This document shows positions 22,370 to 44,039 of a stretch of 52,382 nt of DNA, in pieces. Source of the stretch: a virus (lineage: Duplodnaviria > Caudoviricetes); the IMG/VR virus record IMGVR_UViG_3300020403_000015, positions 1-52,382 of that record; one strand, written 5' to 3'. The position numbers and the translations under genes were made by a program. The notes beneath the pieces are model-generated. The model was not told the origin of the DNA. It worked only from the letters and a program-made list of their open reading frames with translations, and ran no database searches. The stretch's first letter is position 1, and the number at the start of each line of letters is the position of its first letter.

Positions 22370-22535
22370 TGGTGCAAGTCTGGTGCAACGCCTTGTAAGT
22401 TATTGTAATCATTTAAAAAATATGGCAGTCTCTCCGCCAGCATTTTTGAATGAATTCAAATGGTTACAAGTAAATTGCACCAGAGTTTGTGTCACAGTGT
22501 GTCACAGTGTGTCAAGCTGTTTCAGCTTTGCACCA
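22370..22535. other. Putative attP site (core GTCTCTCCGCCA, 22428-22439)
   Basis: Directly downstream of the integrase. Core resembles a tRNA-Ser 3' end; TGGTGCAA x2 and TTGCACCA x2 arm-like repeats; 10-bp tandem repeats at 22488-22514; IHF-like sites. Confidence 0.7.
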
Positions 22536-26659: not shown

Positions 26660-27328
26660 TCAGAAATCCGCACCCTTCCAAGTCATCATGCCAATTACCT
26701 CGACCTTCTCTGGTGAAACCTTTACAGCGTCTTTACCAAGAACATCAGTTGAGACAGTTATATCTTCATCACCAAACCTTACTTCAGCCCAGCGGAAGTA
26801 CAAACGGTTGTTGTTCTTTATTAAATATACGCCCTTCTTACTGACAGTTTCCTGTGTAACTACTCCAGCGGTAACACCCTCACTATTTAATGCATCACAA
26901 TCTGTGTTGCTAACCCTTACATAAAAGAACTCTCTATCATCACCTTTAATATTCAAGGCTTGAAAGTCTTTATACATGCTTATGGTTGTCAGAAACCTGA
27001 GTTCTTCATCACCGTCTGAGGCAGAATAAATACGGGCCTCGACATAATCCCTGATGTTGACTGAGTCAGGTGCTTTATCTTTCTGTTTAGAAAGACCGAA
27101 CAGGTAGTTCAGGTTAATGTCTAGCTTTTGTCCTATCTCACGGATGAGCATGAGGTCTGGATGAACTGGGCCAGAGACAACGTGATTAAATGTACGAGCA
27201 TCCATGCCAACCAGTTTAGCGGCTTCGGTTTGCGTCATGTCTTTTGACGCTAACACAGTTTTGATACGCTCTCTAAATTCCGGGTAATCACGTTTAACTC
27301 TCGTGATTTTTTTATCTAAAGTCGCCAT
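26660..27328 (-). CDS. CI-like repressor (XRE HTH + degenerate S24-like C-terminal domain)
   Basis: MTQTEAAKLVGMDARTF...P....I..I...LDINLNYLFG; ends EVIG; divergent from the 27445 operon. Confidence 0.75.
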   Translation of the reverse strand: MATLDKKITRVKRDYPEFRERIKTVLASKDMTQTEAAKLVGMDARTFNHVVSGPVHPDLMLIREIGQKLDINLNYLFGLSKQKDKAPDSVNIRDYVEARIYSASDGDEELRFLTTISMYKDFQALNIKGDDREFFYVRVSNTDCDALNSEGVTAGVVTQETVSKKGVYLIKNNNRLYFRWAEVRFGDEDITVSTDVLGKDAVKVSPEKVEVIGMMTWKGADF

Positions 27329-27444: not shown

Positions 27445-27882
27445 ATGAAATCTGTAGTTAAAAAGAAAAAAACCGTGAAACGTAGGGCTTCAACCGTCCG
27501 AAAAGAACCTGAATTAGCTATTCAAATAGAAATAATTGAGATGCTAAAGAAGGAACTGAAGAAAAATGTTTGCTTTACTGCCTTCCCAGCGGGTGGCGGT
27601 GGTAGGGTAAGAGGTGCTAAACTGAAACGTGCTGGACTTCAGGCTGGCTGGCCTGATATTCAGCTAGTAAGTGACGGAATGTTCTATGGTCTAGAGGTGA
27701 AGACAAAGATAGGAAAACTCTCTCCAGCGCAGCTTGCACTGCATAAAAAACTACAAGCAATCGGGTGTTCCATTGCTGTAGTGCGGTCAGTATCAGAGGC
27801 TAAGGAGAAAATAGTTGACTGGAATATCTCTAGAAGCGATAAACAGAATGTGGAGAGCAGTTGTCCTGCAATCATTACTTGA
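27445..27882 (+). CDS. VRR-NUC domain nuclease (resolvase-like)
   Basis: E..IQ..I, LK..G..AGWPDI, LEVKT..GKLSPAQ, VVRS. Confidence 0.85.
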   Translation: MKSVVKKKKTVKRRASTVRKEPELAIQIEIIEMLKKELKKNVCFTAFPAGGGGRVRGAKLKRAGLQAGWPDIQLVSDGMFYGLEVKTKIGKLSPAQLALHKKLQAIGCSIAVVRSVSEAKEKIVDWNISRSDKQNVESSCPAIIT

Positions 27883-28180
27883 TGCAGCGGGATTAGGCCG
27901 TTCTCTCAACGCCTCTTGGCCTGAATGGAAACACACACAAGTAAAACAGGAAGCCATCCAATGGCTTTCTGAAGACAGTCAAGATTTCTCTGATGTCTGT
28001 GATGCTGCAACCATCCCTCAAGAAGCAATACGAAAATTTGCCAAGCGGCTTATCCGTGGTGACGCTGCTGCAAAAAAATTATTAATCGAATGGCGAGATA
28101 CATTTGCCAAGCAAGGAAGGAAACTAACTGATGGCGTGGAAGTCGAACAAGAACCCGATGTTCAGGACGAAATTCTCTGA
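27815..28180 (+). CDS. Hypothetical phage protein
   Basis: WRAV..Q.L.DA...A..WL....DF..VC..A pattern common in marine phages. Confidence 0.65.
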   Translation: MTGISLEAINRMWRAVVLQSLLDAAGLGRSLNASWPEWKHTQVKQEAIQWLSEDSQDFSDVCDAATIPQEAIRKFAKRLIRGDAAAKKLLIEWRDTFAKQGRKLTDGVEVEQEPDVQDEIL

Positions 28181-29810
28181 GGATATATTCAATACAAAAT
28201 ACGCACACGAAAATGCAACCACATGGGCAGAACTATCACGCACCCTCGTTGAGGATGTCTGCCGTGACATGATGCCTCAGGATGAGAAGGATGAATTGAT
28301 TGAACACCTCACCAATCTTAGGTGGGTAGCTGGTGGAAGGTACTTATATTATGCTGGTCGCAAAAATAAATTCTTTAATAATTGTTTCCTATTAAAAGCA
28401 GAAGAAGACACGCGGGAAGATTGGGCAAACCTGAGTTGGAAGTCCGAGAGTTGTCTGATGACTGGTGGTGGAATAGGTATTGACTACTCAATATACAGGC
28501 CAGCGGGTTCAGCACTGGGTGGAACTGGTGGTACTGCATCAGGTGCAGTGACCAAGATGCGGATGATAAACGAGATAGGTCGCTCTGTTATGCAGGGCGG
28601 GTCGAGGCGGTCAGCAATATACGCCAGTCTGAACTGGAAACACGGTGACATCTATGATTTTCTTAACGCCAAGAACTGGCAAGACATGCCTATTGGTAAT
28701 TCAGGATACACCCTCTTCGATGCCAAGCAGGATGACTTCAACTTCCCTGCCCCGCTTGATATGACAAACATCTCTGTGAACTACGACACAGAATGGCTGC
28801 TTAACTACTGGAAGACAGGCGAGGTTGGTGATGTGTTTATGAAGAACTGTCGTCAGGCTTTATCAACAGCAGAGCCGGGATTTTCTTTTAACTTCTTTGA
28901 CAAAGAGAACGAGACACTTCGTAACGCATGTACGGAAGTTACCAGCGACTCTGACTCTGACCTTTGTAACCTTGCGAGTCTTAACTTTGCTAGGATAGAT
29001 GACATTGACCAGTTAAATTCTATTGTTTATCTCGTCACCAAGTTTCTTATCTGCGGTACGATTGTCGCGCAATTACCCTATGAAAAGATATATGAAACCC
29101 GTGAGAAAAACAGGCGGCTTGGCCTTGGTCTCATGGGGCTGCACGAATGGTTGATTAAGCGAGGCGAAAAGTATGAGGTAACACCTGAGTTACATCGGTG
29201 GCTCAAGGTGTATCAGGATGTATCAAATGGTACTTCTACAAAGTTCGCTGATGAATTAAATGTCAGTCGTCCTGTAGCAAAGAGAGCGGTGGCCCCGACT
29301 GGAACCATAGGCATCATAGCTGGCACAACGACAGGCGTAGAGCCTTTGTTTGCTGTAGCCTACAAGCGTAGGTATCTGAAGAATAATCGATGGCACTATC
29401 AGTATGTTGTGGACGCAGCCGCACAAGAAATGATTGATGTTCACGGTGCTGACCCTGATAAGATTGAATCCGCGATTGACCTTGCTGATGATTACGAGCG
29501 GCGGATGAAGTTCCAGTTCGATGTTCAGTCTTACGTTGACATGTCAATATCTAGTACAATTAATCTTCCTTCGTGGGGTACACCGCTCAACAATGAAGAT
29601 AAGGTTGAGGATTTTGCACAGACGTTAGCCCGTTACGCTCATGGATTGCGGGGCTTTACCGTATACCCTGATGGAGCGCGGGGTGGACAACCTCTCACAT
29701 CTGTGAAATACTCTGAAGCAGTTGAAAAAACTGGCGATGAATTTGAAGAGTCCATCGAAACCCACGACATATGTGACATCACCCAGCATGGCGGTTCGTG
29801 TGGAGTGTAG
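28131..29810 (+). CDS. nrdJ: Class II (adenosylcobalamin-dependent) ribonucleotide reductase
   Basis: NNCFLL, GGGIG.D, RNACTE, CNLAS, APTGT, SISSTIN, Y.DG.R..QPL, C-terminal C...C. No ATP cone and no beta subunit gene nearby. Confidence 0.85.
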   Translation: MAWKSNKNPMFRTKFSEDIFNTKYAHENATTWAELSRTLVEDVCRDMMPQDEKDELIEHLTNLRWVAGGRYLYYAGRKNKFFNNCFLLKAEEDTREDWANLSWKSESCLMTGGGIGIDYSIYRPAGSALGGTGGTASGAVTKMRMINEIGRSVMQGGSRRSAIYASLNWKHGDIYDFLNAKNWQDMPIGNSGYTLFDAKQDDFNFPAPLDMTNISVNYDTEWLLNYWKTGEVGDVFMKNCRQALSTAEPGFSFNFFDKENETLRNACTEVTSDSDSDLCNLASLNFARIDDIDQLNSIVYLVTKFLICGTIVAQLPYEKIYETREKNRRLGLGLMGLHEWLIKRGEKYEVTPELHRWLKVYQDVSNGTSTKFADELNVSRPVAKRAVAPTGTIGIIAGTTTGVEPLFAVAYKRRYLKNNRWHYQYVVDAAAQEMIDVHGADPDKIESAIDLADDYERRMKFQFDVQSYVDMSISSTINLPSWGTPLNNEDKVEDFAQTLARYAHGLRGFTVYPDGARGGQPLTSVKYSEAVEKTGDEFEESIETHDICDITQHGGSCGV

Positions 29811-29823
29811 CAGCCAGTATTAG

Positions 29824-29862
29824 AGATACTGTCATCTGAAATATGTTGACAGTATCTTTTTT
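29824..29862 (+). terminator. Terminator-like hairpin overlapping a promoter
   Basis: AGATACTGTCA / TGACAGTATCT inverted repeat plus T-run. The loop holds TCTGAAATATGT and the 3' arm holds TTGACA. Confidence 0.6.
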
Positions 29863-29882
29863 AAGTCTTAATGGTGGGGGCT

Positions 29883-30584
29883 ATGAGGTCAGTAGGTTAT
29901 TACAAAATGCATCGTGGTTGGATGGACAACCCAGTCCTGAAGGACTGTGAAGAGCGCATTGTCTGGCTATCTATTATTGAACGAGCCGCTTGGCAGGACA
30001 CTCAAACATTTGTCAACGGTCAATGTGTATCGGTCAAGCGTGGTACATTCTTCACAAGTCTACGCACCTTATGTGGTCACGTTTACTGGGATGCCAAGAA
30101 GGTTTCGCGCTTTCTTGAACGCCTTGAAAAGTGCCACATGATTGCCACAGTAAACGACAATGGAATGACACAGGTAACTGTCTGTAATTACGATAAATAT
30201 AATCCATCAAGCCACACGGATGCCACAGTGGTGACACAGAAAGTGCCACATAAAGAAAGAATAAATAAAAAAGAAGAAATATATATAGCTGGTTGGGATG
30301 ACTTTCATTCGTCTTATCCGTCAGGTCTTCTTGATAATGGCAAGCCAAGGCGGTGGCCTAAGACTGGTCGGGATTCAGCACAGAATTTATTTAAACAAGC
30401 AGTAGCTTCAGGCGCGACAGTTGTAGAACTGTGCAGGGCAGCGACTAACTACGCAAAAGAAAAGGCAGATGGTCAGTACGTTTTCAATCCTAAGAAGTTT
30501 TTAAAGGACGAGCATTGGAAACAGTACTTAACTGACAGCAGTCCAAAGGACAGCTTCTATTCGTCTGACTGGGATTATCAATGA
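29883..30584 (+). CDS. Replication initiator protein (lambda O/DnaD-like, N-terminal wHTH)
   Basis: GY.KMHR....P, RG.F.TS.R.L...W....V.RFL.RL, T.VTVCNY.KY; C-terminal NP.KFL...W; internal iterons. Confidence 0.75.
   Translation: MRSVGYYKMHRGWMDNPVLKDCEERIVWLSIIERAAWQDTQTFVNGQCVSVKRGTFFTSLRTLCGHVYWDAKKVSRFLERLEKCHMIATVNDNGMTQVTVCNYDKYNPSSHTDATVVTQKVPHKERINKKEEIYIAGWDDFHSSYPSGLLDNGKPRRWPKTGRDSAQNLFKQAVASGATVVELCRAATNYAKEKADGQYVFNPKKFLKDEHWKQYLTDSSPKDSFYSSDWDYQ
30132..30288 (+). repeat. Putative replication origin: TG(C/A)CACA iterons + AT-rich tract
   Basis: TGCCACA at 30132, 30143, 30221 and 30244; TGACACA at 30166 and 30232; A/T-rich tract at 30251-30288. Confidence 0.6.
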
Positions 30585-30898
30585 TGGTTGATAAGTTCCT
30601 TAACAAACACGGTGCATTCGGTACGGAACTGGAGAGCGTTCTGGGTAAGACCTTTAGTGGTTGGCGCAGATGTCGCTGCCCTAAATGTTCCGACACTAGG
30701 AAAAATAAAACGGACAGATGTCTTGGTGTGAGACATCCTGAGGAAGGGGATATATATGTTATCTGTCACAACTGCGGATGGCGGTCAGGCTTCAATGGCT
30801 CTAACTCCAGCAGCTTCGGAGTATCTGGAAGGTCGTTCAATCACAGTCGAAACGGCAGAAAGTCTGGGGGTCTACGCCTTAAAACACCTTGGTACTGA
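30581..30898 (+). CDS. Stand-alone primase zinc-binding domain
   Basis: CPKCS..RK.K.D.CL.V......ICHNCGW matches the T7 gp4/Twinkle ZBD. Confidence 0.7.
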   Translation: MMVDKFLNKHGAFGTELESVLGKTFSGWRRCRCPKCSDTRKNKTDRCLGVRHPEEGDIYVICHNCGWRSGFNGSNSSSFGVSGRSFNHSRNGRKSGGLRLKTPWY

Positions 30899-32258
30899 CT
30901 GCCTCGCCTTTCCTTTTCTGAAAGATGGGAAGATTGTAAACCACAAGTACAAGAATTTTCTGGATAAGAACGGCGTACCCTCTTGGTCTCAGGACAAGGG
31001 TGGAGAGCAGATAGTTTGGAACCGTTCTGTTCTAGAGGACCAATCTCTGACTGACCAGCCAGTGATAATCACTGAGGGCGAATGGGATTGTTGCGTTGCT
31101 GTACAGTGTGGGTATATCAGGTCTGTATCCGTGCCATCAGGCGCACCATCACAAGCCATTGACCCGTCAAGGGATGATGTAAGCAACAAGTATGCCTTCG
31201 TCCGGGATATCTTGCCCTTACTTGAGGAGTGTCGGGAGATAATTCTCTGCACTGATGGTGACACAAACGGTCAGGTTTTACGCGATGACTTAGCTATCAG
31301 GCTAGGCCGCGCACGTTGTAAGTTTGTGACATACCCTAAAGAGTGCAAGGATTTAAACGATGCACTCAATAAATACGGGGCGCGAGGTGTAGAGGAGACT
31401 ATCAAACGTGCCAAGTGGTATGCTGTTGACGGTGTGTTCTCCTTCTCTCAGTTGCCACCGCTTGAGGACAAGCCAGTCTATAACCTTGGTATGTCAGGGT
31501 TCGATGACCATTACAAACTAAGGCGCGGGGATTTTTCTGTAGTAACTGGAGTTCCAAGCAGCGGTAAGTCAACCTTCTTAAATCATATGATGTGCAAGGT
31601 GATTAAAGAACATGGCATGAAGGTATGCTTCGCCAGCTTTGAACAATCACCACAGACAGACCATCATCGTGCGTTAAGGAAGTGGTGGTACTGGTCATAC
31701 AAGAACATCACCGCACCACACAAAACATTTGAAAAGCATTCTGATGCTGAAGAATTTTCAGCATGGTTGGATACTTACTTCCGCATTATCTACCCCAGTT
31801 GGGATGATAGCGTAGATATTGACTGGTTAATGGAGCGCATGACTGCCGCCGTTGTGCAGGAAGATTGTGACATCGTTGTCATAGACCCCTTCAACGAGAT
31901 GGAACACAACACCAGCGGAGAGAGCATGACGCTCTATATCGGGTGGTTCATCAAGACACTGAAGAGATTTGCCAGTAAGCACAACGTGCATGTGATTGTC
32001 GTAGCCCACCCACGCAAGATTAATAAAGATGCAAAGGGCAACGTTGAACTGCCAACGCTGTATGACATTGAACAGTCAGCCATGTGGTATAACAAGGCAG
32101 ACCTTGGGGTCATCATTCACCGCAGGGATGGCGTGACATTAGCACGGGTTGCAAAGTCCCGTTACGAGGATGTTATAGGCAAGCGCGGTGACACACATTT
32201 TATCTTTGATGAGGAGACGGCACATTTCAATGAGTACATCCCAGAAATCTTTGAGTAA
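30756..32258 (+). CDS. TOPRIM primase - SF4 (DnaB/T7 gp4/Twinkle-like) helicase lacking ZBD
   Basis: ITEGEWD, DGD..G, KDLND; Walker A GVPSSGKS; VVIDP, VAHPRK, KSRY. Confidence 0.88.
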   Translation: MLSVTTADGGQASMALTPAASEYLEGRSITVETAESLGVYALKHLGTDCLAFPFLKDGKIVNHKYKNFLDKNGVPSWSQDKGGEQIVWNRSVLEDQSLTDQPVIITEGEWDCCVAVQCGYIRSVSVPSGAPSQAIDPSRDDVSNKYAFVRDILPLLEECREIILCTDGDTNGQVLRDDLAIRLGRARCKFVTYPKECKDLNDALNKYGARGVEETIKRAKWYAVDGVFSFSQLPPLEDKPVYNLGMSGFDDHYKLRRGDFSVVTGVPSSGKSTFLNHMMCKVIKEHGMKVCFASFEQSPQTDHHRALRKWWYWSYKNITAPHKTFEKHSDAEEFSAWLDTYFRIIYPSWDDSVDIDWLMERMTAAVVQEDCDIVVIDPFNEMEHNTSGESMTLYIGWFIKTLKRFASKHNVHVIVVAHPRKINKDAKGNVELPTLYDIEQSAMWYNKADLGVIIHRRDGVTLARVAKSRYEDVIGKRGDTHFIFDEETAHFNEYIPEIFE

Positions 32259-32724
32259 GTTAGTTGAAACAAAGCTCGGTGTTCTCCGCCCTGAGTGGGC
32301 TGACAAGAACAAGCCCCGCATGCGGAGAGTTGACCAACGCACAGTTGACCGATTGCTTTTGTCTGACAAGCTGACATCGGAACAACACAAGGCGGCTGAG
32401 TGGTATCATAACCTAGCAGCAACAGCGAACACCACGCCTCACCTTGTCTCACAAATAGGTGGCATGAGGGTTGACGGTGCGCCTCGCGAGATAAGCAATC
32501 GCCAAGCAGATGCTAGGATTACACTCAAGCTGGTGGATGCTGATATTAAATTAAAGAATAATGATTATACGCTGCATGTGTTGAGGTCTGTAGTTATCTT
32601 TGACGAGTCAATGAGAAACCTCAGTAAACATGACAACCAAAAAACCCGAACAGGCATAGAGACATTACGAATAGGGTTGGATACCCTTGAAAAAATAATG
32701 CCTCGTTATCAACGTTATCTATGA
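32230..32724 (+). CDS. DUF6456-like putative late-gene regulator
   Basis: DRL....KLT.EQ..AA..Y, ADAR..L, VL..VV.....L, G.E.LR.GL..L pattern; last gene of the middle operon. Confidence 0.55.
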   Translation: MSTSQKSLSKLVETKLGVLRPEWADKNKPRMRRVDQRTVDRLLLSDKLTSEQHKAAEWYHNLAATANTTPHLVSQIGGMRVDGAPREISNRQADARITLKLVDADIKLKNNDYTLHVLRSVVIFDESMRNLSKHDNQKTRTGIETLRIGLDTLEKIMPRYQRYL

Positions 32725-33528: not shown

Positions 33529-33912
33529 TCATGTTACTGTCTCCTCACGAAATATACCTATGCTTGTTTCAGCTAAATCACGGTCACCACGCCGATAGCA
33601 CAAATCGAGGACAAACTTTGTGCCAAAGCTGTTAAAATGTAGACGAGTGCAATCACCATAATCTGCGTCCTCAAGTTCTTCACGCTTATCAACGCCATAC
33701 CTACTCTCCTCTAGGGAAATACCTTTCGTTGCCTCTTGATATCCCAACTCATATGCGGTGCGTATTTCGTCTTCGATATTGTAAAGGTCTTCCTGAGACA
33801 GAATTACTTTTACATCTTCTTCACAATGAACTTGCATATCATCAACATAGTTAGGGTCACCCGTGGCCCACTCAACGATTTTTTTCACACGTTGTTTTGC
33901 ACTAAATACCAT
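33529..33912 (-). CDS. Hypothetical protein
   Basis: 127 aa with AAGGAG RBS. Confidence 0.6.
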   Translation of the reverse strand: MVFSAKQRVKKIVEWATGDPNYVDDMQVHCEEDVKVILSQEDLYNIEDEIRTAYELGYQEATKGISLEESRYGVDKREELEDADYGDCTRLHFNSFGTKFVLDLCYRRGDRDLAETSIGIFREETVT

Positions 33913-34031
33913 TACTCAATCTCCTTCTTACAATATGTGCGGTCAAACTTTTCTCTGTGAATGTGCCAAACACCTTTGTTGTCAATCCAGACTAGGTGTT
34001 TGATACGAACAGGGAATGAAACCCAATCCAT
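33912..34031 (-). CDS. Small hypothetical protein (39 aa)
   Basis: MDWVSFPVRIKHLVWIDNKGVWHIHREKFDRTYCKKEIE; TAATG coupling to the next gene. Confidence 0.4.
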   Translation of the reverse strand: MDWVSFPVRIKHLVWIDNKGVWHIHREKFDRTYCKKEIE

Positions 34032-34053
34032 CCCCTTCTTTTTTCTTAAGCAT

Positions 34054-34311
34054 TCAGGACAAGTGGCTGAGTTCATCATTCACTCCATCCTCTGCCATGC
34101 ATACGGCTTGAGTGCTTATCTTTAACTCACGACAATCATCATAAAGACACTGGAGTTTCTGCCCCATATCCTTGAGCATAATCTTCTTGGCTTCTTTGAT
34201 AATCGCGTCAGCCTCTGTGCCTTTGAGGTGGTCAGTGTTCTTTACAATGAACCTCGCCAGCCACACTGTGCTTTGAATAGTCCGTAGTTGTTCATCAATC
34301 ATCTTCGTCAT
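34054..34311 (-). CDS. Hypothetical protein
   Basis: 85-aa ORF in the operon. Confidence 0.55.
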   Translation of the reverse strand: MTKMIDEQLRTIQSTVWLARFIVKNTDHLKGTEADAIIKEAKKIMLKDMGQKLQCLYDDCRELKISTQAVCMAEDGVNDELSHLS

Positions 34312-34708
34312 CTTTCTCTTTTATGAAGCAGAATTTCTTTTTATTTTTTGACGGTGGTTTTAATTTGATACAGGCCGAACACTTCCACGATGTGCTGGTT
34401 GTTGCGTCCAGGAATTCCGATTGAGTAGTCAGTGGCTCTTTGCACACGCAGCAGCGGGGCAAGTCGTCCGATAGAACTATCTCACCAGTCTGAATATCCT
34501 GAAGGATTACCTTGGTAACCTCACTCAGCTTCATCATAGCACCACCACCACAACGCTGGTTTGTGGGGAAGTGTTCTTGACCCATGTCTTTAAGTTTCGT
34601 TTTTACTGGGGGCAGTGTCTCTAAGTGACCCTGTCTAGGAACCCTAGCGGCTCCTACTTTTCGTTCTTTGTAGCCATCATCAATGTAGTCGCAGTTGTAT
34701 CTCGACAT
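34295..34708 (-). CDS. Hypothetical protein with CxxC...CxxC zinc finger
   Basis: CCVC...CSAC; AGGAG RBS. Confidence 0.5.
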   Translation of the reverse strand: MSRYNCDYIDDGYKERKVGAARVPRQGHLETLPPVKTKLKDMGQEHFPTNQRCGGGAMMKLSEVTKVILQDIQTGEIVLSDDLPRCCVCKEPLTTQSEFLDATTSTSWKCSACIKLKPPSKNKKKFCFIKEKDDEDD

Positions 34709-34802
34709 TACATTCTCCTACTGACAAGAGGGGTTAAATATTTAAGCGCAGGGGGCGCATTACAAAGCTGCACCAAAGTAAGCGTCCCCTTTTGCACCGC
34801 AC

Positions 34803-35078
34803 TCAATGCACTTGTTCACGTTTCCTTGCGCGGTACTTTTGTTTGTAAATCCTGTCGTACTCACGATACCTGACACGATTTTGTAGCCGCCACCTTCGCA
34901 CGGCAGGACGGGACTTGAGATATTTTCGGTGTTGGTTTCGGTACTCTCCAAAGAGGATGAGTAGTTTAACTGTGTCCGATAATAACTCTGCATTCATGTT
35001 ATCCTTTATTAAATCCCAACTAAATTTACCGTGCTTAAGTTTCCAAGCAGCCCTTGCTTTGAGATATTTTTTCTTCAT
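34803..35078 (-). CDS. Basic hypothetical protein
   Basis: K/R-rich, 91 aa; ATGA overlap with Sir2. Confidence 0.55.
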   Translation of the reverse strand: MKKKYLKARAAWKLKHGKFSWDLIKDNMNAELLSDTVKLLILFGEYRNQHRKYLKSRPAVRRWRLQNRVRYREYDRIYKQKYRARKREQVH

Positions 35079-35734
35079 GCCCGTTGCCTCTTCTTGTAGA
35101 GTTCATCAAAGCGTTTGTGTAAGATTGGAAGACCAACAGTCGCTGGCATATTCAAGACCTCATCAAACGCTGGATGACCTGTTGGTTCAGGGTTTAGCTC
35201 TATGCAATGAGTGCCTTTATGCCTCGCCTTAAAGACCATCGAACTATCACCACTGATTGACAGTGAAGAGCCAACAACAATTAAGACATCAGCCTCATCC
35301 AGAAGTTTGTCAGTCTGCTCTTCATGCATCTTCTCTTCTCCAAACAGCACGACATCAGGGATAACAACACCTTCTCGAATGCTACGGGTACGGCTCATGC
35401 AGCCGTGAATTTTGAAAAGGTTTTTAGAGCCAGCCTTTTCATGTAGGTCATCAACGTTGGTTGTGATTAAACCAAAGCCACCCTTACGCTTCGCGACACA
35501 ACGTTCAAACTTACGAATAAGTTTGTGTGCTATAGTCGGTTGGAAGTTTGCTGCTTTATATTCAGCAGTCACCTTGTCCCAAAAGTCGGTGAACTGCTTT
35601 TGGTCTATCAACCAGCCGCCAGTCTGAGCAACGATGGCTGGATTGTGTTCGGCCCATAGAGCCTTGCTTGCACGAAATGTGGGGATGCCACTCTCTGCGC
35701 TGATACCCGCGCCAGTATAGAAAACAATATTCAT
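35075..35734 (-). CDS. Sir2/CobB-family NAD-dependent deacylase lacking the Zn module
   Basis: TGAGISAESGIPTFR, TTNVDDLHEKAG, IHG, PDVVLFGE, VGSS, LNP. Confidence 0.9.
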   Translation of the reverse strand: MNIVFYTGAGISAESGIPTFRASKALWAEHNPAIVAQTGGWLIDQKQFTDFWDKVTAEYKAANFQPTIAHKLIRKFERCVAKRKGGFGLITTNVDDLHEKAGSKNLFKIHGCMSRTRSIREGVVIPDVVLFGEEKMHEEQTDKLLDEADVLIVVGSSLSISGDSSMVFKARHKGTHCIELNPEPTGHPAFDEVLNMPATVGLPILHKRFDELYKKRQRA

Positions 35735-35862
35735 ATCTGATTTCCTTCCTTCACTGGTGGGGCATTGGAAGGGTTGCTCCAGCTAGAGACAACCAAGCCA
35801 ACAAACGTTCCCCAGATTATAAAAATGGAGTAAACGCCAGTCGCGTTGTACTTAAAAAACAT
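35731..35862 (-). CDS. Small membrane peptide (43 aa, not in ORF track)
   Basis: MFFKYNATGVYSIFIIWGTFVGLVVSSWSNPSNAPPVKEGNQI; AAGGAGAAAGGA RBS; ATGA overlap with the Sir2 start. Confidence 0.5.
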   Translation of the reverse strand: MFFKYNATGVYSIFIIWGTFVGLVVSSWSNPSNAPPVKEGNQI

Positions 35863-36049
35863 TGTCCTTTCTCCTTACTAAAAGTTATTAAGACTTAGTT
35901 GCGTTTATAGAGTTACACAGATTAGGCATATTTAATACCTATATTTTTCTGTCTTATCTCTTTTATAAGACCCCCTTCCTTTCTTTTGTTTCACAACCCG
36001 CCCACGATAGAGAGGGGTGCGTAGTATTTTGGCTATCTTATTTTTAATA

Positions 36050-36286
36050 TTAAAAGGTCGTTTCATTTTTCAACCTCGCCAAGTCAGATTTAAAATTGGA
36101 CAAACTCTTTTTACATGACGGTGTGTTTGAAGTTGAAACCTTGAACACCGACTGACCCGTCACCCTACCCCCGCCATAGCTAGGGGTAGATAGTGTTAGT
36201 TTGATATGCTTGCCAACGTCCACACTGACCACGTTAAAGCCAGCTTGCTTGGCTAGTTTCTTTACATCCCTCAGGTGCTTTCTCAT
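36050..36286 (-). CDS. Hypothetical protein (HicA-like fold possible)
   Basis: LAKQAGF.V....GKHIKL...S.TPS pattern. Confidence 0.5.
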   Translation of the reverse strand: MRKHLRDVKKLAKQAGFNVVSVDVGKHIKLTLSTPSYGGGRVTGQSVFKVSTSNTPSCKKSLSNFKSDLARLKNETTF

Positions 36287-37170
36287 TCCAAGGCTCCCAA
36301 CAAATCAGAGGTAAACTCAGCACTAGCTTTGCGCTTGGCAACAGACTTGATATGCATGCGGCTCTTACATAACTTGAGCGAACCCATGTACTTTGCGATG
36401 TAACCTTCTTGCTCTGACCAGTCATTGGCTTTCAAACCCTTGCTGTAGTATTCAACTTGGAAACCTTCGACATCACCGAACATGCCAATCGGCTCAACCG
36501 ACTTGATGATTTTGTTCTCAATGGTGACATGTTGTTGAGCCTTGCTTGACTTGAATGACCTATCCTCGTCATCATCTGTCCTGAGTAGATTGATTTGCTC
36601 TGCCCAGTTCATCGGAACTGGAAGCAAGACTTCATGTGTTTGATAGCCAGTGTCATACTTTTTACAAACCTTACCCTCTTCGTTCAGGTATATTATGCAG
36701 TGCAAGTTAGCCCTGCCATTGGGCTTGTCGCCGTCCCACTCAGCTTTAAATTCACAACTGTAAAACGCTGGCCTCAACCACGGGGATTTTCTCAATCTAT
36801 CTGCCAACCACACTGCTTGTTCGCTATATCTATCCACCGCCGCTGCAAGACCAGTTGGCGTTTTCTCTTTGAACGCAGCCCTTTGTCGGGTCAGCGTATC
36901 CTTGCTCCGCATATAGTCATTTTCAAAATTAAACCCAGTTAGCCCACCCCTATCTAGGTTCATTGCTTGCCTTACCGCATGGGCGTTATTGGATTTTGAG
37001 ATTCTTTTTAGCTTGGTCTTGGACACACCCATAGCCCTGAATATTTCTTGCAAGTCTTTCATTCTGGCTTTGGCTGCAAGGTAATCCAGTTGTGCTTCAT
37101 TACGGACGGTTACCTTTACACCCGTAAATTTTTGTATGTGCTTCAATACATGTGACATATTTTTCTCCAC
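36283..37170 (-). CDS. Hypothetical protein
   Basis: 295-aa ORF, no motif recognised. Confidence 0.65.
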   Translation of the reverse strand: MEKNMSHVLKHIQKFTGVKVTVRNEAQLDYLAAKARMKDLQEIFRAMGVSKTKLKRISKSNNAHAVRQAMNLDRGGLTGFNFENDYMRSKDTLTRQRAAFKEKTPTGLAAAVDRYSEQAVWLADRLRKSPWLRPAFYSCEFKAEWDGDKPNGRANLHCIIYLNEEGKVCKKYDTGYQTHEVLLPVPMNWAEQINLLRTDDDEDRSFKSSKAQQHVTIENKIIKSVEPIGMFGDVEGFQVEYYSKGLKANDWSEQEGYIAKYMGSLKLCKSRMHIKSVAKRKASAEFTSDLLGALE

Positions 37171-37213
37171 TACTGACTGTTAAATATTGATTCCTGACTG
37201 CAATAACTCGCAG

Positions 37214-38503
37214 CTAAAACTTGATAGACATAACCTCACCGAACAGATGACCTTGCCTTTCTGAAGTGACACCCCAGTACACTGGATAGTCTGGCTCTTC
37301 AGGACAGGCTGAATATCCATCCGTTAGGTAGACCAAGGCCATTGGCTTGATGCCCATCTCATCAACCCAATCAAACACGGGCTGAAAATCTGTGCCGCCG
37401 CCAATCTTCACATCAATATCTAGATGTTCGCCCTGTTCAAAAGTCCGTGCGTCCGTTATCCTTGTGCTGCACTGAAGGATATGGACACGGGTTGGTCGTA
37501 ACTCTTCACAGATAGACCTGAACTCAGCGACAAACTGCTGCACCTCATCGGGGCTGCAACTGGCTGACGTATCAAAGGCCAAGACCAGTTCGCCTGTATC
37601 CTCACGGTGAAAGTCAGGCATGAATATGTCATCACTTTCTAACAAGTGGCCCATGTTCTTGTGTGAGCGTTGATATGTGTAGTCAACAACAGACACACCC
37701 TGCATCGTCTCGCGAATAACAGTCTTCCAATCCACGCTTGGTTTCTTGTATTCCTCAAGCAATGTCTGACCCGCACTGGTCTCAAGGCCACGGGCTTTTG
37801 CCATAGTGTGTGCCTGTTCAACCATCACTTCGACTTCGCGTTCTGCTTCAGCCGCTTCCTCTGGGGTTGTGATATCGGCGTTGTCTACCCTGCCCCAGTC
37901 CTGCGGCTTCAGACCATCATCCATTGACTGGTCACCGGGAGATTGAGCATCGCCTTCCTGCTGCTGCTCGCCACCTTTGCCACCTTTGCCATCATCATTA
38001 TCATCACCATCACTAGGCTGCTGCGGTGTTTTGGTTCTTCTGGGGTTAACGTCAGGCTGCTTTTGTTCTTTGAGAAGTGACTTGTAGATATCATCACTGC
38101 TCATGCCCCTGTACTTTTCGTCAAGCAATGCACCTTCGGGCAACTCCATACACGATACACCCCTGCGTTTGATTTCTGCATTGATTGCATCCTGAATTTG
38201 AAGATTAATCCAGTAGTCGGTCGCGATGTTGTGCAGTTCAGGGTCAAGGCCAATACCTCTGATATGATGCTTGCCGTACACATGCATCACCTCATGCACA
38301 ACCAAACCGACTTTTTGCTTCGATGGAAGGGACATTAAGAAGTCAGGGTTAAACTTGATTGACGTTCCATTGGTTGCTGCGGTGTTCATCTTCTCATCAG
38401 AAACCCAGAGTAGCTTGCTTGCACCAGCCCCAAAGAAGGGCTGATGCGCTAGTGTTTTCATCTTAATCTTTGAGATTTCATCCTGTAATTTGTTCATGTT
38501 CAA
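37214..38503 (-). CDS. DUF2201-type metallopeptidase + VWA domain protein
   Basis: TAATNG, HEVMH (HExxH), NIATD..IN, acidic linker, DTSAS MIDAS, GGGTDF.PVF, YLTDGY. Confidence 0.85.
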   Translation of the reverse strand: MNMNKLQDEISKIKMKTLAHQPFFGAGASKLLWVSDEKMNTAATNGTSIKFNPDFLMSLPSKQKVGLVVHEVMHVYGKHHIRGIGLDPELHNIATDYWINLQIQDAINAEIKRRGVSCMELPEGALLDEKYRGMSSDDIYKSLLKEQKQPDVNPRRTKTPQQPSDGDDNDDGKGGKGGEQQQEGDAQSPGDQSMDDGLKPQDWGRVDNADITTPEEAAEAEREVEVMVEQAHTMAKARGLETSAGQTLLEEYKKPSVDWKTVIRETMQGVSVVDYTYQRSHKNMGHLLESDDIFMPDFHREDTGELVLAFDTSASCSPDEVQQFVAEFRSICEELRPTRVHILQCSTRITDARTFEQGEHLDIDVKIGGGTDFQPVFDWVDEMGIKPMALVYLTDGYSACPEEPDYPVYWGVTSERQGHLFGEVMSIKF

Positions 38504-38508
38504 TCTCC

Positions 38509-39543
38509 TTACGAGCGCACAATATTTGCGAGTTCACAATTCAGTTCGATATACTTTTGATTTTTGCATAGCTTCTGGTCACGAGCCGCAATATCAGTCA
38601 GACAAATCAACTGGTATTCACGGTTCATCCTACGCATGAACTTGATTACGTTGTCCATGTTCGCAGCCGTTGCCATCCGCGCAACAGAACCAGTCATGGC
38701 GAACTTTACACACACATCTTCGGGAATCTCGACACTGTCGGGGTCTTTCTCAATCTGCGTGAGGTCAGGAAGTGACCGCCACATTTTGAGGAATGCCATA
38801 TACTCAATGGCAAACCCATGACCACAACAGCCCTCAACCAGTGAGAATTCTAAATCCTGACTCGCACCCTTGATAAGGTTATCCATCATCACGATTGAAC
38901 GTGGCGTTGGAAATGCCGTCATATCTGGCTCAAAGTCGTGCAGTTGGTCTTGCTTGAAGCGCACAAAGGCAACGGTTTGAGGTGACACGCCAGCAGGAAT
39001 TGCCCAACTCGCAAAGTCTGCGACTGACGGTTCAAGCTGCACATGGACAAAGCGGTTACGCAACGGGGCTGGCATTGTATTGGTAACGCCACGGTCCGAC
39101 ACGCGATTGCCAGCAGCCATGATGCGGCAACCCTTGGGCAGTTCATAATCACCCAAGCGTTTATCCAATACCAATTGATAGGACATTGCCTGAATAATAG
39201 GTGATGGCTGGTTGATTTCATCCAAAAGAACAAGGATTTTTGCGTCTGGGTCAGTGGGCAGTCGCCCATCTCTAGCCCATTGAACCTTAACAACAGTACC
39301 ATCTTCAAGTCTGACTGGTACAGGCACACCTTTTAAATCTGACGGGTCAGTGACAGACAACCTCACATCTATGCACCCGTCAAACCCCAGAGCCTCTGCT
39401 AATTGGTGTATCATATCCGATTTACCCGCGCCTGACTTACCCCAAGTCATCAGGGGCAAATCTGCTTGGATACATTGCTTTGCATAGTCGAACCATTTTG
39501 AAGGGCTGACCGTTGCGATATTCATTTCTGTAGATTTTTGCAT
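38509..39543 (-). CDS. MoxR-like AAA+ ATPase
   Basis: Walker A GKSGAGKS, Walker B LLLDE-like (VLLDEI), AAGNR, PLRNRF, PTPRS. Confidence 0.88.
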   Translation of the reverse strand: MQKSTEMNIATVSPSKWFDYAKQCIQADLPLMTWGKSGAGKSDMIHQLAEALGFDGCIDVRLSVTDPSDLKGVPVPVRLEDGTVVKVQWARDGRLPTDPDAKILVLLDEINQPSPIIQAMSYQLVLDKRLGDYELPKGCRIMAAGNRVSDRGVTNTMPAPLRNRFVHVQLEPSVADFASWAIPAGVSPQTVAFVRFKQDQLHDFEPDMTAFPTPRSIVMMDNLIKGASQDLEFSLVEGCCGHGFAIEYMAFLKMWRSLPDLTQIEKDPDSVEIPEDVCVKFAMTGSVARMATAANMDNVIKFMRRMNREYQLICLTDIAARDQKLCKNQKYIELNCELANIVRS

Positions 39544-39572
39544 AATAATCTCGCTTTCATACTGACGTTTTT

Positions 39573-39613
39573 AATATGGGTATTATAACTGACGATGTCA
39601 AACATATTTCTGA
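39573..39613 (-). promoter_or_regulatory. Promoter of AAA/VWA genes with operator-like motif
   Basis: Minus strand reads TCAGAAATATGT-TTGACA-17 nt-CATATT. Confidence 0.55.
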
Positions 39614-39619
39614 CTGACA

Positions 39620-39847
39620 CTAGTCACATTTTTTTGCAGGGATAAAAGTTGACAATCTCCTTCCATTTTTAAGGTGAGCTTTTTTTGCCAGCTTTACTGC
39701 TTCATCAACCACTGACTTGTCAGTGTTTTGATTGTCGTGTATTCGCTGCACAATTTTGAATGTTTCCCACGGCAGCGGTGTCACCTGTTCACGGCAACAC
39801 ACTGCGTTATGGGCTTTCCAGTTTTGCATTCGTTCTACTGCTTTCAT
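39620..39847 (-). CDS. Hypothetical protein
   Basis: 75 aa; ATGA overlap with the upstream gene. Confidence 0.55.
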   Translation of the reverse strand: MKAVERMQNWKAHNAVCCREQVTPLPWETFKIVQRIHDNQNTDKSVVDEAVKLAKKAHLKNGRRLSTFIPAKKCD

Positions 39848-40734
39848 GCTGCTACTCCATATCCAGCCATAGCATCCAAGATGCCTTGGGCTTCATTCGC
39901 TGCTGATTTCCGCGCAACTTCATTTTCTCGTAAATCACCAGCATCTAAGACTGCGAGTTTTTGTTTCACCAACTCGCAATAATTATTTAAGTCTGCGTCA
40001 CCAGTCAGGTTAAGACGGGGCAAGACCTGACAAAGGTCGCGGATATTTTCAACTAGGCTATCCTTGAAACCATCTACAACCTTGCTTTCACCTTTGACTG
40101 CGGGTTTATAGTTGACCATCTTATGATGGAACAACTCAACACGGCTAATCAGGCGTTCCCATAAATCGTGCATTGCCCCGTCAATACGAGACTGCATCTG
40201 GGTTTCTGCGTTTTCGATTAACTGTTGCTCAAGTTCCTCAGAGCCAAACATCTTGTCGAACATATTATTATCAGCCAATGGCTCATAATTTATAGTCATG
40301 CTGAATTTCTCGCGTACAGCCTCAACACTTGGATAATCATCAGCGTTGAACATCTCACCCAGACGGCCTTGCTGGCGGTCACGGTGTCGCTCGTATTTTT
40401 TCAGGAAGTCTTCAACCAGCCCGTCAAAAATATCTTTGAGGTTGCCGATTTTCTCTTTGTGAAAGTCGAACATGGTAACGGGCATCAAGTCCTGACCTTT
40501 TGCGTATGGCAAGGTCAATTCTTTATTCAGGTTTCTAGCCTTGCCAGCAACCTTTTTGATTTCCTTTAGCATCTCGTTATCGGCAAACAAGGACTTAACA
40601 TATTTGCCAGCCTTGCTGCTTGCGTTCTTGTTGTTCGCAACTTCATCAGACACTGAGCGGTCAATCTTTTCACCACCCCACTGTGAGATTTCAAGGCGAA
40701 CAATAACTGCGGATTTTTGAATATTTGTAGCCAT
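39844..40734 (-). CDS. DUF3150-like protein
   Basis: L.ISQW.G.K.D, F...Y, DYPS.E.VR.KF, LNLTGD..L; typical neighbour of AAA/DUF2201 genes. Confidence 0.6.
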   Translation of the reverse strand: MATNIQKSAVIVRLEISQWGGEKIDRSVSDEVANNKNASSKAGKYVKSLFADNEMLKEIKKVAGKARNLNKELTLPYAKGQDLMPVTMFDFHKEKIGNLKDIFDGLVEDFLKKYERHRDRQQGRLGEMFNADDYPSVEAVREKFSMTINYEPLADNNMFDKMFGSEELEQQLIENAETQMQSRIDGAMHDLWERLISRVELFHHKMVNYKPAVKGESKVVDGFKDSLVENIRDLCQVLPRLNLTGDADLNNYCELVKQKLAVLDAGDLRENEVARKSAANEAQGILDAMAGYGVAA

Positions 40735-40765
40735 GTGATTATTTCCTCTTCCAGATAAATATTGA

Positions 40766-41005
40766 CTAGTTAATCTCTGTTTCTGACTTAGTCAAGGCGT
40801 GACGATGCTCACCCTCGTTAAGAGGGAACCGCGAGAGGATATCTTCAAGATGCCCCGCGCAACTGATACCAGCAAAAATTGCTGTTATCATTCCCAGTAT
40901 CCAAAGGTCAGTCAGTCCCTCACTGAACAGCACCACCGCCATTGTTCCAGCGAATGCTGCCAGCGCACCATCTTTAATCATCCAAATAATAGGTCTATTT
41001 GTCAT
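40766..41005 (-). CDS. Small two-TM membrane protein
   Basis: Two hydrophobic segments. Confidence 0.55.
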   Translation of the reverse strand: MTNRPIIWMIKDGALAAFAGTMAVVLFSEGLTDLWILGMITAIFAGISCAGHLEDILSRFPLNEGEHRHALTKSETEIN

Positions 41006-41405
41006 TTTTTCTTTCCACTTCTATCAAGCCTTTGATGTATTTTGTTGTTTTTTGGATTGAACAGGCAATCTGGAACCATTCGATATCGCGGCCCCCACCC
41101 TCTCTACGTCGGACACTTTCACCTTGCTCATAGGCGATATCGTAAAGCTCGTTTAACTTTTGCAGAAAATCTGATTTATCCACGCCAAAATTTGTCGTCC
41201 AAGGCGTTACCGTTTCTGCCATTTTTACCGCTTCCTCATAGGTGTTATGGCTGGAATGATGATGCTTACCTTTGGCTGTTCGGGGTTCGATGTATAACGT
41301 CCAGCAGCCAATGGACTTGTTTATCACAACATATTCTTGACTATTTACCCCAACCCACGTTGCGCGGGTTTCAGGCATTAATTCAAATTTTGCAACTTGT
41401 GACAT
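40995..41405 (-). CDS. Hypothetical protein
   Basis: 136 aa; AAAGGAGG RBS. Confidence 0.6.
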   Translation of the reverse strand: MSQVAKFELMPETRATWVGVNSQEYVVINKSIGCWTLYIEPRTAKGKHHHSSHNTYEEAVKMAETVTPWTTNFGVDKSDFLQKLNELYDIAYEQGESVRRREGGGRDIEWFQIACSIQKTTKYIKGLIEVERKNDK

Positions 41406-41423
41406 GGGCCGTGGCCCTCCTTT

Positions 41424-41663
41424 CTAAAGATGTGAAAAGCTGATTATTTGCTTACCCTTGGGGGTTTGCTCATAAACTATATTAACCAGCCGCCCTTCCC
41501 AGTTTGTGCAAACTTCATAAGCACAAGCTGCGTTAGACTTTGTTTTGAAAACTCCGAATGCTGTATGCAATGCCCAGCGTGGGTTGCCGACACTTGAATT
41601 GTTGAGGCGTTCCACTTTTCGGATGTTGATTTGGTCTTTTATGGGGTTTGTTTTTTTATTCAT
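41424..41663 (-). CDS. Hypothetical protein, first ORF of the early operon
   Basis: RL..S..GNPRW motif; AAAAGGA RBS. Confidence 0.6.
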   Translation of the reverse strand: MNKKTNPIKDQINIRKVERLNNSSVGNPRWALHTAFGVFKTKSNAACAYEVCTNWEGRLVNIVYEQTPKGKQIISFSHL

Positions 41664-41679
41664 GGTTTGGAAAGTTCCT

Positions 41680-42545
41680 TTTCAGTTCCAATGCGGTGAG
41701 GTGTTCACCGTGTCAGGGCTTGGCAAGGGAGATAACCAAGCCCTCACAAGGTGACAGGACCGAAGCCCTGCCGCCTGAAACTGTGTTTTCATCATTGACC
41801 GCCCTGCATTCCTGCACTGGCATGTCATGTTGGCTAGTCAATGGCTGATGTTTACGGCAACCCGTGTCACTTTTTCCACGGGTGCGGCAAACTTGATGCA
41901 ATGTGGCGGTCAGCACCGCCAGCCGCCGAAGCGACAACCTGTCATGGTCAGTGGCAAGGGGTCCGAAGACAATTTTAATTCCAACCGTGCAACCTCTTAT
42001 TACACGGTCAACGTTGCAGCCCTGCTTTGGGGGTCTCGACTGCATAACATCCTATCTGCGGGGTGTGGTGGCCCTGCCCAGTCTGGGGGTCTCAATCAGT
42101 ATTGGAAAGCGTCCTTTGTGGGGAATGGTTACCCTGCCAAGTTGGGGGTCTGTGAAGGGTTGCTGTTAGGACGGTTTGTTGAATTCCTACACCTAACAGC
42201 AGCCGGACAATTGACCAGTTCCAACGGGTCTAACGAACACCTGATGATGCACCAGTTCCAGTGGGTCTAATGTGCAGCAGCGCGATTGACCAATTCCAAG
42301 GGGTCTAGCGCAACGTTGCTTGCGTTTAGCGTTTGTAGTCTTATGAACGATGGGAAAAAGCGAACCGAAGCCAGCGTCCTGCCGCCTATGCGGAGTATCG
42401 GGGGGCGGGAATTGAACTGCCAGTGCAGCCATTAGGCCAGCCCTTGTCCGACTGCCAACATTGCAGCGGGGCGTGGGGTCACCGTGTGAGCGGTGTCGGT
42501 ATGAACTTTGTCAAACAGCGCGGCCCAAAAATGCTAGGGGGCCAA
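41680..42545 (-). ncRNA. Candidate large structured RNA / leader of the early operon
   Basis: No credible CDS; GC-richer than flanks; many hairpins; four C(UUCG)G loops on the minus strand; six repeated AGACCC modules. Confidence 0.55.
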
Positions 42546-42718
42546 TGACGCAACTTGGGCGTCAAGTCAGAAATATGTACTGACAAAGCCTATTTCAAGG
42601 GGTGCTAGTCAAAAAAGTTTCCTGACAAAGAAAGCCCCAAACGGGGCGGGGAAATAACCGCATTGGGGATAAGGGATAAGGTACACTGTAAGGGGATAAG
42701 ACAAAGGGACTAGAAACA

Positions 42719-43204
42719 ATGGCAAGTAAGAAGCACACGACAGCCCACGGGTTGACTGTTAAGCAGGAAGCATTCGCTCAGGCATATGTCACGGGGGATA
42801 GCAAAGGCAATGCATCAGCGGCATACAGGGCGGCCTACGACTGCGAAAAGATGAAACCCAGTAGCGTAAGGGCCGAAGCATGCCGATTGCTGGATAACCT
42901 GAACGTAACCCAGCGCATTGACCAGTTAAACGCTGATATAACGGCTCAACACCGCTTGCAGGGGGTCTCGCTGCGTCAACGAGTGCAGGAAGGACTGTTA
43001 TTGGAAGCAACCGCCGCTGAAAGCCCAGCAGCGCGGGTCAGGGCATGGGAATTGATAGGCAAGCTGCAAGGTGTGGACGCATTCGGTGCTGACCGTGTCG
43101 AGACCAACACCACAATAAACAGCAAAACGGCGGAAAGTGAGCTACAACAAGCAATAGCAGCCGCACTTGAAGATAGTACCGTGGTGCAACTGTTCGATAA
43201 GTAG
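42719..43204 (+). CDS. terS: Terminase small subunit
   Basis: LTVKQEAFAQAYV...NASAAYRAAY...A.RLL.N..V..RI..L; A.ELIGK..G. Confidence 0.88.
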   Translation: MASKKHTTAHGLTVKQEAFAQAYVTGDSKGNASAAYRAAYDCEKMKPSSVRAEACRLLDNLNVTQRIDQLNADITAQHRLQGVSLRQRVQEGLLLEATAAESPAARVRAWELIGKLQGVDAFGADRVETNTTINSKTAESELQQAIAAALEDSTVVQLFDK

Positions 43205-43694
43205 CTGATATCGCTGGTTTCTGGTGGCGGAAATTAGGGGATTGCAAGGCTCACCCTCAAATCGGGGTGTACCTTGACAGATAGAGGGTGTCTTCCCTGC
43301 CTACCCCCACCCCCCTGTACGCACACTCACCCACACTCGCGTATACATAGTACTAAACACCCACAATCCCAGCTTTTTCCAACCAATCCCATACCCCTTT
43401 CCCCCAAAACACAGGAAAAAGGCCAAGGAATCCTACCCCCGGTGGGGATATTTAGTGAATTATAAAGGAAATTATGAAGGAAAGTGAGAACGCTACATAG
43501 CAAAAGAGCATAAAGGCGAAGATATTGCTGAACTTCATAACGATAAAACCTCTTTAAAAGGGGACCAGCCTGAATGCGCTACAAGCTGGTCCGAGTCTAG
43601 GGAGATTTAAAAGCAGCCGGGGAGAAGGAGTAAAACCCCCGACCACTCATTCGGTTATATCGTCAGGAATCTGTAGTGTCAACACCTACGTCAT

Positions 43695-43736
43695 ACATAT
43701 TTCAGAGTTGACAGTGCCAGTAATAGAACATAAGGT
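43695..43736 (+). promoter_or_regulatory. Sigma70-type promoter with operator-like motif
   Basis: ACATATTTCAGA-G-TTGACA-17 nt-TAAGGT. Confidence 0.6.
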
Positions 43737-43817
43737 GAATCTGCATGGTCAAGCATGCGCTGTGAGAACGGGGGTCTTCTTCTATCACCCTTCCACCCAG
43801 AAACGAGGAAGACCCCT

Positions 43818-44039
43818 ATGACAGAAGCTGCAACCCGCAAAGACCTTATCTGGATAACTGACGAAGGCGACATCGACTATGACGAGGCGATGATGGAAGA
43901 GTGGTTCGCAGCCGCCGTAGAGAACCTTTCGGTATACGAGGTCAGTGATGACTCAGCCGCTTGGATGCTTTTCCTCATGGGCGCAGAGACAGCAGTCAGA
44001 GGAAACATCGGAGACCACCCATATGGCGGGAGTGCGTAA
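43818..44039 (+). CDS. Hypothetical acidic protein
   Basis: GAGGA RBS, ATG 43818. Confidence 0.55.
   Translation: MTEAATRKDLIWITDEGDIDYDEAMMEEWFAAAVENLSVYEVSDDSAAWMLFLMGAETAVRGNIGDHPYGGSA

Follow-up and report, generated by a model that had tools for sequence, protein, structure and literature searches.

Six copies of the hexamer GGGTCT stand close together upstream of terS in a temperate marine phage. The question that this locus raises is what they are: separate binding sites on DNA or RNA, copies of a host defence RNA, or parts of one larger structure. The window, by which we mean the whole stretch of DNA analysed, is a linear IMG/VR phage record of 52,382 bases that is estimated to be 83% complete and is without end repeats. 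The phage is temperate, encoding an integrase (22522–23577) and a CI-like repressor (26660–27328), and has its replication genes at 28131–32258. The array lies inside a gap of 1,055 nt (41664–42718) that contains no convincing ORF. On the plus strand to the right of the gap, terS is followed by genes for DUF3310, MazG, terL and the portal protein. A minus-strand operon runs leftward from the gap, its first ORF starting at 41663; small ORFs without family come first, and then a 296-aa DUF3150-like protein, a MoxR-like ATPase, a DUF2201 metallopeptidase/VWA protein and a Sir2-like protein. The 296-aa protein is conserved and resembles DUF3150 phage proteins of unknown function, giving no lead to RNA binding. 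Behind two to four variable small ORFs, this operon (33529–41663, minus strand) is kept in relatives L003–L036: the DUF3150-like protein (39–66% identity) was found in 11 of 13 compared loci and the MoxR-like ATPase (50–67% identity) in seven of 13, some loci being too short to reach these genes. Past terS, about 750 nt (43205–43960) are without a long ORF and include a C-rich tract (~43290–43410). A tRNA search found no tRNA gene.

The sequence scan placed the plus-strand copies of GGGTCT at 42031, 42087, 42146, 42226, 42263 and 42301, with spacings of 56 and 59 nt, then 37 and 38 nt. These are the positions named in the original prediction, which had divided the copies into two classes of three with these periods; both of its minus-strand consensus strings match the window sequence. 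Counted over both strands, the whole window has an excess of the hexamer: 37 copies where 20.8 ± 4.3 are expected, a count reached in none of 100 shuffles. Of the 37, 31 stand away from the array and are spread over the two strands. Fifteen of these are on the plus strand, in ~52 kb. By Poisson arithmetic on such background counts, the chance of six units within 276 nt is ~1e-9 to 1e-10. The repeat finder recovered a 10-nt family and one of 37 nt, whose copies show 68% and 81% identity with the reference.

Relatives were collected by similarity and by pattern. The IMG/VR search with terS yielded 22 loci. Thirteen of these (75–95% terS identity) retain the whole gap, and all 13 have units at matching offsets upstream of terS, with one to six exact GGGTCT copies apiece. 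In the nine distant loci (L015–L023, 36–59% terS identity) the region is without similarity. Scanning viral sequences with a conserved two-block DNA pattern gave 17 stretches, three of them by chance, and added four viral contigs. The metagenome scan gave 11 stretches, six in the family (two new, L044 and L045) and five that are chance matches in coding sequence. The scan of a genome collection gave six stretches, none in the family (all chance, in coding sequence), and found no prophage copy and no host. A blastn search with the 1,055-nt gap against 50,697 phage records gave no match. The family is small, with ~13 lineages from ~20 contigs, 51–82% identical over the region barring near-duplicates. 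Public runs containing the stretch are marine or seawater metagenomes. By terL the nearest cultured phages, at 53–58% identity, are the Pelagibacter phages HTVC027P/023P together with DSL-LC04 and 023Pt_psg01, two phages of uncultivated hosts. The gaps near terS in two inspected terL relatives hold neither the motif nor any similarity.

Ten six-unit sequences were given to RNAalifold, which found a nested pairing unaided: 77 pairs, 28 of them compensatory. It paired the flanks of the array with each other (P0), then B3 with A1 and B1 with A3, where B denotes the units spaced 37–38 nt apart and A those spaced 56–59 nt apart; it did not fold the units singly. We completed the model by hand, adding B2:A2, the third helix of each module and connector Pa, and counted on the same alignment. 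The completed arm has 90 pairs in 18 helices over nine distinct sequences (Table 1). On the minus-strand RNA, units B3, B2 and B1 pair with A1, A2 and A3 in nested order. The 5′ strand of the arm would carry B3, B2, B1 and the 3′ strand A3, A2, A1, so that B3:A1, B2:A2 and B1:A3 would form three modules stacked along the arm. Ten letters of unit A1, GGGGGTCTCG, occur again within terS (42959–42968), probably by chance or through coding constraint.

Table 1. Features of the structured region and its neighbours. Positions count from the first base of the window; in helices the 5′ strand of the minus-strand RNA is given first.
Feature	Position	Strand	Pairing and remarks
Whole structured RNA, ~870 nt	41690..42563	-	Covariation in three sub-alignments; putative ends
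Arm, long irregular hairpin holding all six units, ~310 nt	42009..42318	-	Closed by P0
Helix P0	42318-42310 with 42017-42009	-	5/9 pairs compensatory; 97.5% of cells paired
Unit B3, module 1 5′ strand	42288..42306	-	Pairs with A1: AGACCC 42306-42301:42022-42018; UUGG 42299-42296:42030-42027; GGUC 42291-42288:42035-42032
Unit A1, module 1 3′ strand	42018..42036	-	
Unit B2, module 2 5′ strand	42250..42268	-	Pairs with A2: 42267-42263:42079-76; 42261-58:42086-83; 42253-50:42091-88
Unit A2, module 2 3′ strand	42076..42092	-	Followed by side hairpin HA2
Side hairpin HA2	42074-42061	-	Pair 296/309 G-C in 8, A-U in 1
Unit B1, module 3 5′ strand	42213..42231	-	Pairs with A3: 42230-26:42139-36; 42224-21:42145-42; 42216-13:42150-47
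Unit A3, module 3 3′ strand	42136..42151	-	Followed by side hairpin HA3
Side hairpin HA3	42134-42121	-	Pair 232/245 G-C in 7, C-G in 2
Connector region, all between-module helices	42047..42273	-	
Connector Pa	42273-69 with 42051-47	-	3/5 pairs compensatory; 100% of cells paired
Connector Pb	42246-41 with 42099-94	-	1/6 pairs compensatory
Connector Pc	42235-32 with 42113-10	-	2/4 pairs compensatory
Terminal stem-loop capping arm	42158..42204	-	6/12 pairs compensatory; 73.5% of cells paired; loop sequence conserved
Candidate sigma-70-like promoter	42570..42598	-	-35 TTGAAA 42598-42593; 17-nt spacer; -10 TATTTC 42575-42570
terS	42719-43204	+	Terminase_2; right of gap

The model was compared with decoys in which partners are slid by one to three columns and with 500 shuffles. 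In the model 93.2% of cells are paired (slid, 32.6–48.8%), 32 pairs change on both sides (slid, 6–9), 93 cells change on both sides (slid, 13–17) and the covariation score is 0.342 (slid, 0.045–0.070); no shuffle reaches any of these four values, a significance that is overstated because the family members are related. The number of further pair types, 58 in the model and 18–27 when slid, was reached by 107 of the 500 shuffles and is not significant. Our reading, to which we assign a probability of about 0.8, is that the six units are the paired strands of a triplicated helical module within a large RNA.

Each module consists of three short helices with asymmetric internal loops between them. 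Helix 1 joins AG(A)CCC of the B strand to GGGC of the A strand and is invariant in modules 1 and 2. The middle helix joins NNNGG to CCNNN, and its sequence varies freely. Helix 3 joins GGUC of the B strand to GACC from the A strand's own AGACC. Since both strands begin AGACC, the module is two-fold symmetric. The outer helices are invariant in most cells, so support for their pairing comes from a few compensated exceptions and from the nested context. The motif change AGAACC (L011/L045) is matched by GGUC in the partner (pair 135/229 is C-G in seven sequences and A-U in two), AGACCU (L012/L013) is matched by A in the predicted partner, and AGACAC (L003, a short-arm sequence) is matched by UGU (pair 67/242 is G-C in four and U-A in one). 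The middle helix of module 1 switches from U-A to C-G in four of the nine distinct sequences. That of module 2 measures 6 bp in L004/L005 and 5 bp in L011/L045, the others having 4 bp, and complementarity is kept throughout; column by column, just 66.7% of cells pair, because of one-base alignment offsets.

The order in which units are matched was evaluated separately. The B units and their cognate A units carry complementary variable triplets, and the nested assignment is best or joint best among the six permutations in six of seven distinct RNAs. Cognate partners share 4.24 contiguous pairs and non-cognate partners 3.57, a weak margin, so that it is chiefly the connector helices that support the nested order. 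A side hairpin follows each inner A unit and forms a three-way junction there, which is why the A period exceeds the B period. In L030 the terminal stem-loop is swapped for a short stem with a UUCG loop. The fold of the single sequence recovers P0 and the first module. The arm is not significantly more stable than its shuffles on either strand (z = -0.29 minus, -0.74 plus).

The original prediction had each unit folding by itself as a small hairpin, among unrelated spacers, so that six independent hairpins would serve as multivalent protein sites in a sponge or decoy. The B units do lend themselves to this, their GACC and own GGUC being self-complementary and able to form a local 4-bp hairpin; the invariant GGA-containing motif is reminiscent of protein sites displayed in loops, and copy number differs among relatives. 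The variable triplets, however, covary with the distant partner unit and not within their own unit. AGAACC is likewise compensated in A3 and not at the unit's own 3′ end, the A units are unable to form the B-type local hairpin, and the intervening sequence takes part in covarying helices across the arm, Pa and P0 among them (Table 1). What had been called spacers are, going by their covariation, connector helices that join the modules, and the conserved fold is the long-range pairing of B with A in three duplex modules. We consider the six separate hairpins very unlikely. Multivalent binding of protein to the folded modules is possible.

Among relatives, the triplicated module that we favour comes in two architectures which differ in unit number, six in one and three in the other. 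Five sequences (L003, L007, L010, L026 and L044) have the short arm: the outer helix is the same, one module is full and a half module is closed by a local hairpin. The short-arm model has 85 pairs, 24 of them compensatory, and retains the outer helix and module 1. The 5′ domain and terS side of L044 (metagenome contig, 234–1400) are 89% identical to the window, yet its arm is short and resembles that of L007. From this mosaic it follows that arms have been exchanged or remodelled between lineages, and it suggests recombination inside the RNA gene. With three modules in some lineages and about one and a half in others, the arm acts like a peripheral part of the RNA that can be expanded.

The sequences flanking the arm were aligned as two further domains. 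In the 3′ domain (41664–42025) the model has 48 pairs, 21 compensatory, with 95.1% of cells paired; in the 5′ domain (42300–42665) it has 43 pairs, 20 compensatory, with 93.6% of cells paired. None of 500 shuffles reaches either. Over the three sub-alignments 181 pairs are modelled, 73 of them compensatory, and four measures beat all 500 shuffles. Both flanking domains covary as strongly as the arm, and the array therefore belongs to a structured RNA of ~870 nt. Its putative 5′ end is set by a promoter-like site and its putative 3′ end by the covarying hairpin that comes last. The region has the marks of a large structured non-coding RNA: many compensated helices, no conserved ORF, and retention in diverged relatives. 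Judged by comparison of sequences, the pairing scheme is real and conserved and the region is structured as a whole. At ~42419–42440 (minus strand), in the 5′ domain, most relatives including L011 have CCUAAG opposite (C/U)AUGG, which we take to resemble the 11-nt tetraloop receptor; the window has CCUAAU.

Searched against Rfam (GOLLD, ROOL, OLE, HEARO, raiA and all other 4227 families), positions 40500–44000 gave no match at E ≤ 1. At E ≤ 10, positions 41640–42730 gave three matches of 14.9–16.1 bits, against gathering scores of 41–70. No description of this RNA was found in the literature. We take it for a previously undescribed, very large structured phage RNA, distinguished by its triplicated symmetric module.

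Repeats at such a place might instead act as duplex DNA: pac or cos sites for terS, origin iterons, or operators. Typically, pac and cosB regions contain short boxes in several copies, and this array sits 410–690 bp upstream of terS in a neighbourhood preserved in all relatives. DNA sites, however, give no reason for units up to ~270 nt apart to be complementary and to covary, for motif changes to be compensated or for spacers to covary. The units all share one orientation and lie within ~870 nt of covarying structure. Iterons would be expected beside replication genes, but these lie ~10 kb away (27445–32724, with the helicase loader and primase-helicase at 29871–32258). We regard DNA sites, which the original prediction had offered in the form of terminase sites, as a highly improbable account of the repeats; a second, packaging role of the same DNA is possible.

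The RNA is very probably made from the minus strand, as had been predicted. Each of the 12 sequences has one to four copies of the tetraloop motif cUUCGg on the minus strand and none on the plus strand, and loops that hold UUCG in some sequences hold UACG or UCCG in others. Asymmetry of G.U pairs points the same way. In the compensation-supported helices of structures predicted for the minus strand there are 98 minus-type G.U cells and 22 plus-type, and in those predicted for the plus strand 61 plus-type and 54 minus-type. The hand model of the arm has 39 minus-type G.U cells and four A.C cells. In a crude first full-length alignment the counts were 65 and 59, which does not separate the strands. 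A plus-strand transcript could fold into the same arm, in which case the terS late operon would have a long 5′ leader containing it. Watson-Crick covariation is identical on either strand, in 11 of 12 sequences the plus strand has the lower folding energy, and terS is the sole neighbour conserved throughout. Against this leader stand the UNCG loops, found on the minus strand only, the G.U asymmetry and a promoter-like site on the minus strand; we think it unlikely.

The candidate promoter (Table 1) was read by eye from the 5′-domain alignment and the sequence. It sits just upstream of the first covarying hairpin, and relatives have at this site TTGATT or TTGTTT and, after 16–17 nt, TATTTT or TATATT. 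A consensus promoter scan reported nothing; it missed the candidate because the -10 fits the consensus at three of six positions. Two palindromes lie between the RNA and terS and are kept in relatives: GTCAG-N9-CTGAC (42565–42588), which overlaps the candidate minus-strand -10, and GTCA-N12-TGAC (42607–42630). They are 79% alike and resemble operators in a divergent switch region. A GC hairpin with a U-rich run (42634–42647, minus strand), with compensatory changes in relatives, lies upstream of the candidate RNA promoter and might be the terminator of a short minus-strand RNA antisense to the terS start. Metatranscriptome contigs from four studies map to 41785–42608 and give a weak hint of RNA; they are unstranded and record presence only, so that uncovered parts carry no meaning, the runs were found using this stretch, and such libraries can contain DNA. 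Other RNA-contig matches in the 3.6 kb compared are only 33–39-nt pieces at 43858–43902 (runs X17 and X20; within longer unrelated contigs).

Transcription of the RNA would start at this promoter, divergent from terS, and would run on into the DUF3150/MoxR/VWA operon. No terminator follows the last hairpin, where the ORF starting at 41663 comes next, and in all relatives an ORF starts 33–45 nt after the anchor position. The leftward operon therefore probably has this RNA as its long leader, be it released by later cleavage or not.

An array carried by a phage might also mimic an RNA of host defence; it could resemble the repeats of a type III antitoxin of the ToxI kind, a CRISPR repeat or an anti-CRISPR RNA. 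The original prediction had named an antitoxin and a crRNA mimic. The B period of 37–38 nt falls within the size range of ToxI units and CRISPR repeats. The B copies, though, are just 68% and 81% identical to the reference over 37 nt, and they pair with A units and do not stand alone. Nor do the neighbouring ORFs include an endoribonuclease toxin, Cas or other defence family: among ~33 ORFs scanned with PHROGs, Pfam or PADLOC there was no match to cas or Nop-type families, as had been noted at the outset, and the neighbouring ORFs on either side of the array include no toxin or PADLOC defence family. Compared with CRISPR, the repeats are non-identical, the spacers are structural helices and Rfam gives no CRISPR-repeat match. 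Mimicry of either kind is scarcely credible. In sum, what held of the original prediction is that the repeats are real, conserved, read as minus-strand RNA and variable in copy number among relatives; its independent hairpins and unrelated spacers, and its mimic, sponge and terminase mechanisms, were not supported.

What the triplicated module does in the RNA may be sought in what it conserves. Over three modules and nine sequences the outer helices and unpaired adenines are almost invariant; the middle helix, the connectors and P0 vary. Such a pattern points to repeated, evenly spaced docking sites with base-specific contacts, and the modules most likely serve to dock RNA or a dimeric protein. 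We give nearly an even chance to contacts of RNA with RNA, whether inside one molecule or, as GOLLD and ROOL make them, from copy to copy. A dimeric RNA-binding protein, one per module, is almost as likely a partner. The modules are unlikely to be the substrate of a double-strand-specific nuclease. More speculatively, and with rather low odds in our estimation, this may be a new class of ornate ~0.9-kb phage RNA whose arm modules assemble an RNA-only particle or hold several host-protein dimers, and whose operator-controlled promoter stands at the switch between the packaging and MoxR-VWA genes. The secondary structure of the RNA is well constrained by covariation, and the unusual repeated symmetric module gives handles for structural work and for finding partners. 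Very large structured RNAs without known function are, to our knowledge, rare, and this is a further candidate of GOLLD/ROOL size, from abundant marine temperate phages. More generally, two classes of direct repeats whose periods differ need not be an array of binding sites: they can be the paired strands of a single folded arm.

Several known systems invite comparison. The pRNA of phi29 is likewise a structured phage RNA encoded beside packaging genes. It has ~120–174 nt and multimerises by loop-loop pairing on the portal. The RNA described here is five times longer, is divergent from terS, is read into a non-structural operon and has no Rfam match. Arrays of the ToxI type also consist of tandem RNA units of ~37 nt and are near-identical tandem repeats beside an endoribonuclease toxin gene. 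The units here are 68–81% alike, pair with a second class and are fixed within a larger fold, and no adjacent toxin gene of that kind was found. The CsrB/RsmZ sponges share with it a short GGA-containing motif repeated within one RNA, and display GGA in loops or single strands. In this RNA, by contrast, the GG of GGA lies in the middle helix, paired with the CC of the partner and adjoined by covarying pairs. A sponge for CsrA/RsmA, the kind of decoy suggested earlier, was rejected as a candidate, the GG:CC pairs being 100% standard in modules 1 and 3.

A survey that mined IMG/VR for structured RNAs used the same data source and the same covariation method as here, and its candidates average 67 nt (PMC10690425). 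Pieces of this RNA could be among those candidates, and the supplementary tables of the survey might list fragments of it. There is a likeness too to GOLLD and ROOL, ornate RNAs of phages and prophages that are also very large, with many helices and strong covariation. Those RNAs are found near tRNA islands; this one lies between terS and an operon and is without an Rfam match. A triplicated symmetric module within one arm is not known from those RNAs. GOLLD and ROOL build RNA-only cages, in which one copy touches another through A-minor contacts and kissing loops (PMC12286853). By analogy, contacts of that sort are a plausible use for the invariant symmetric modules of the arm.
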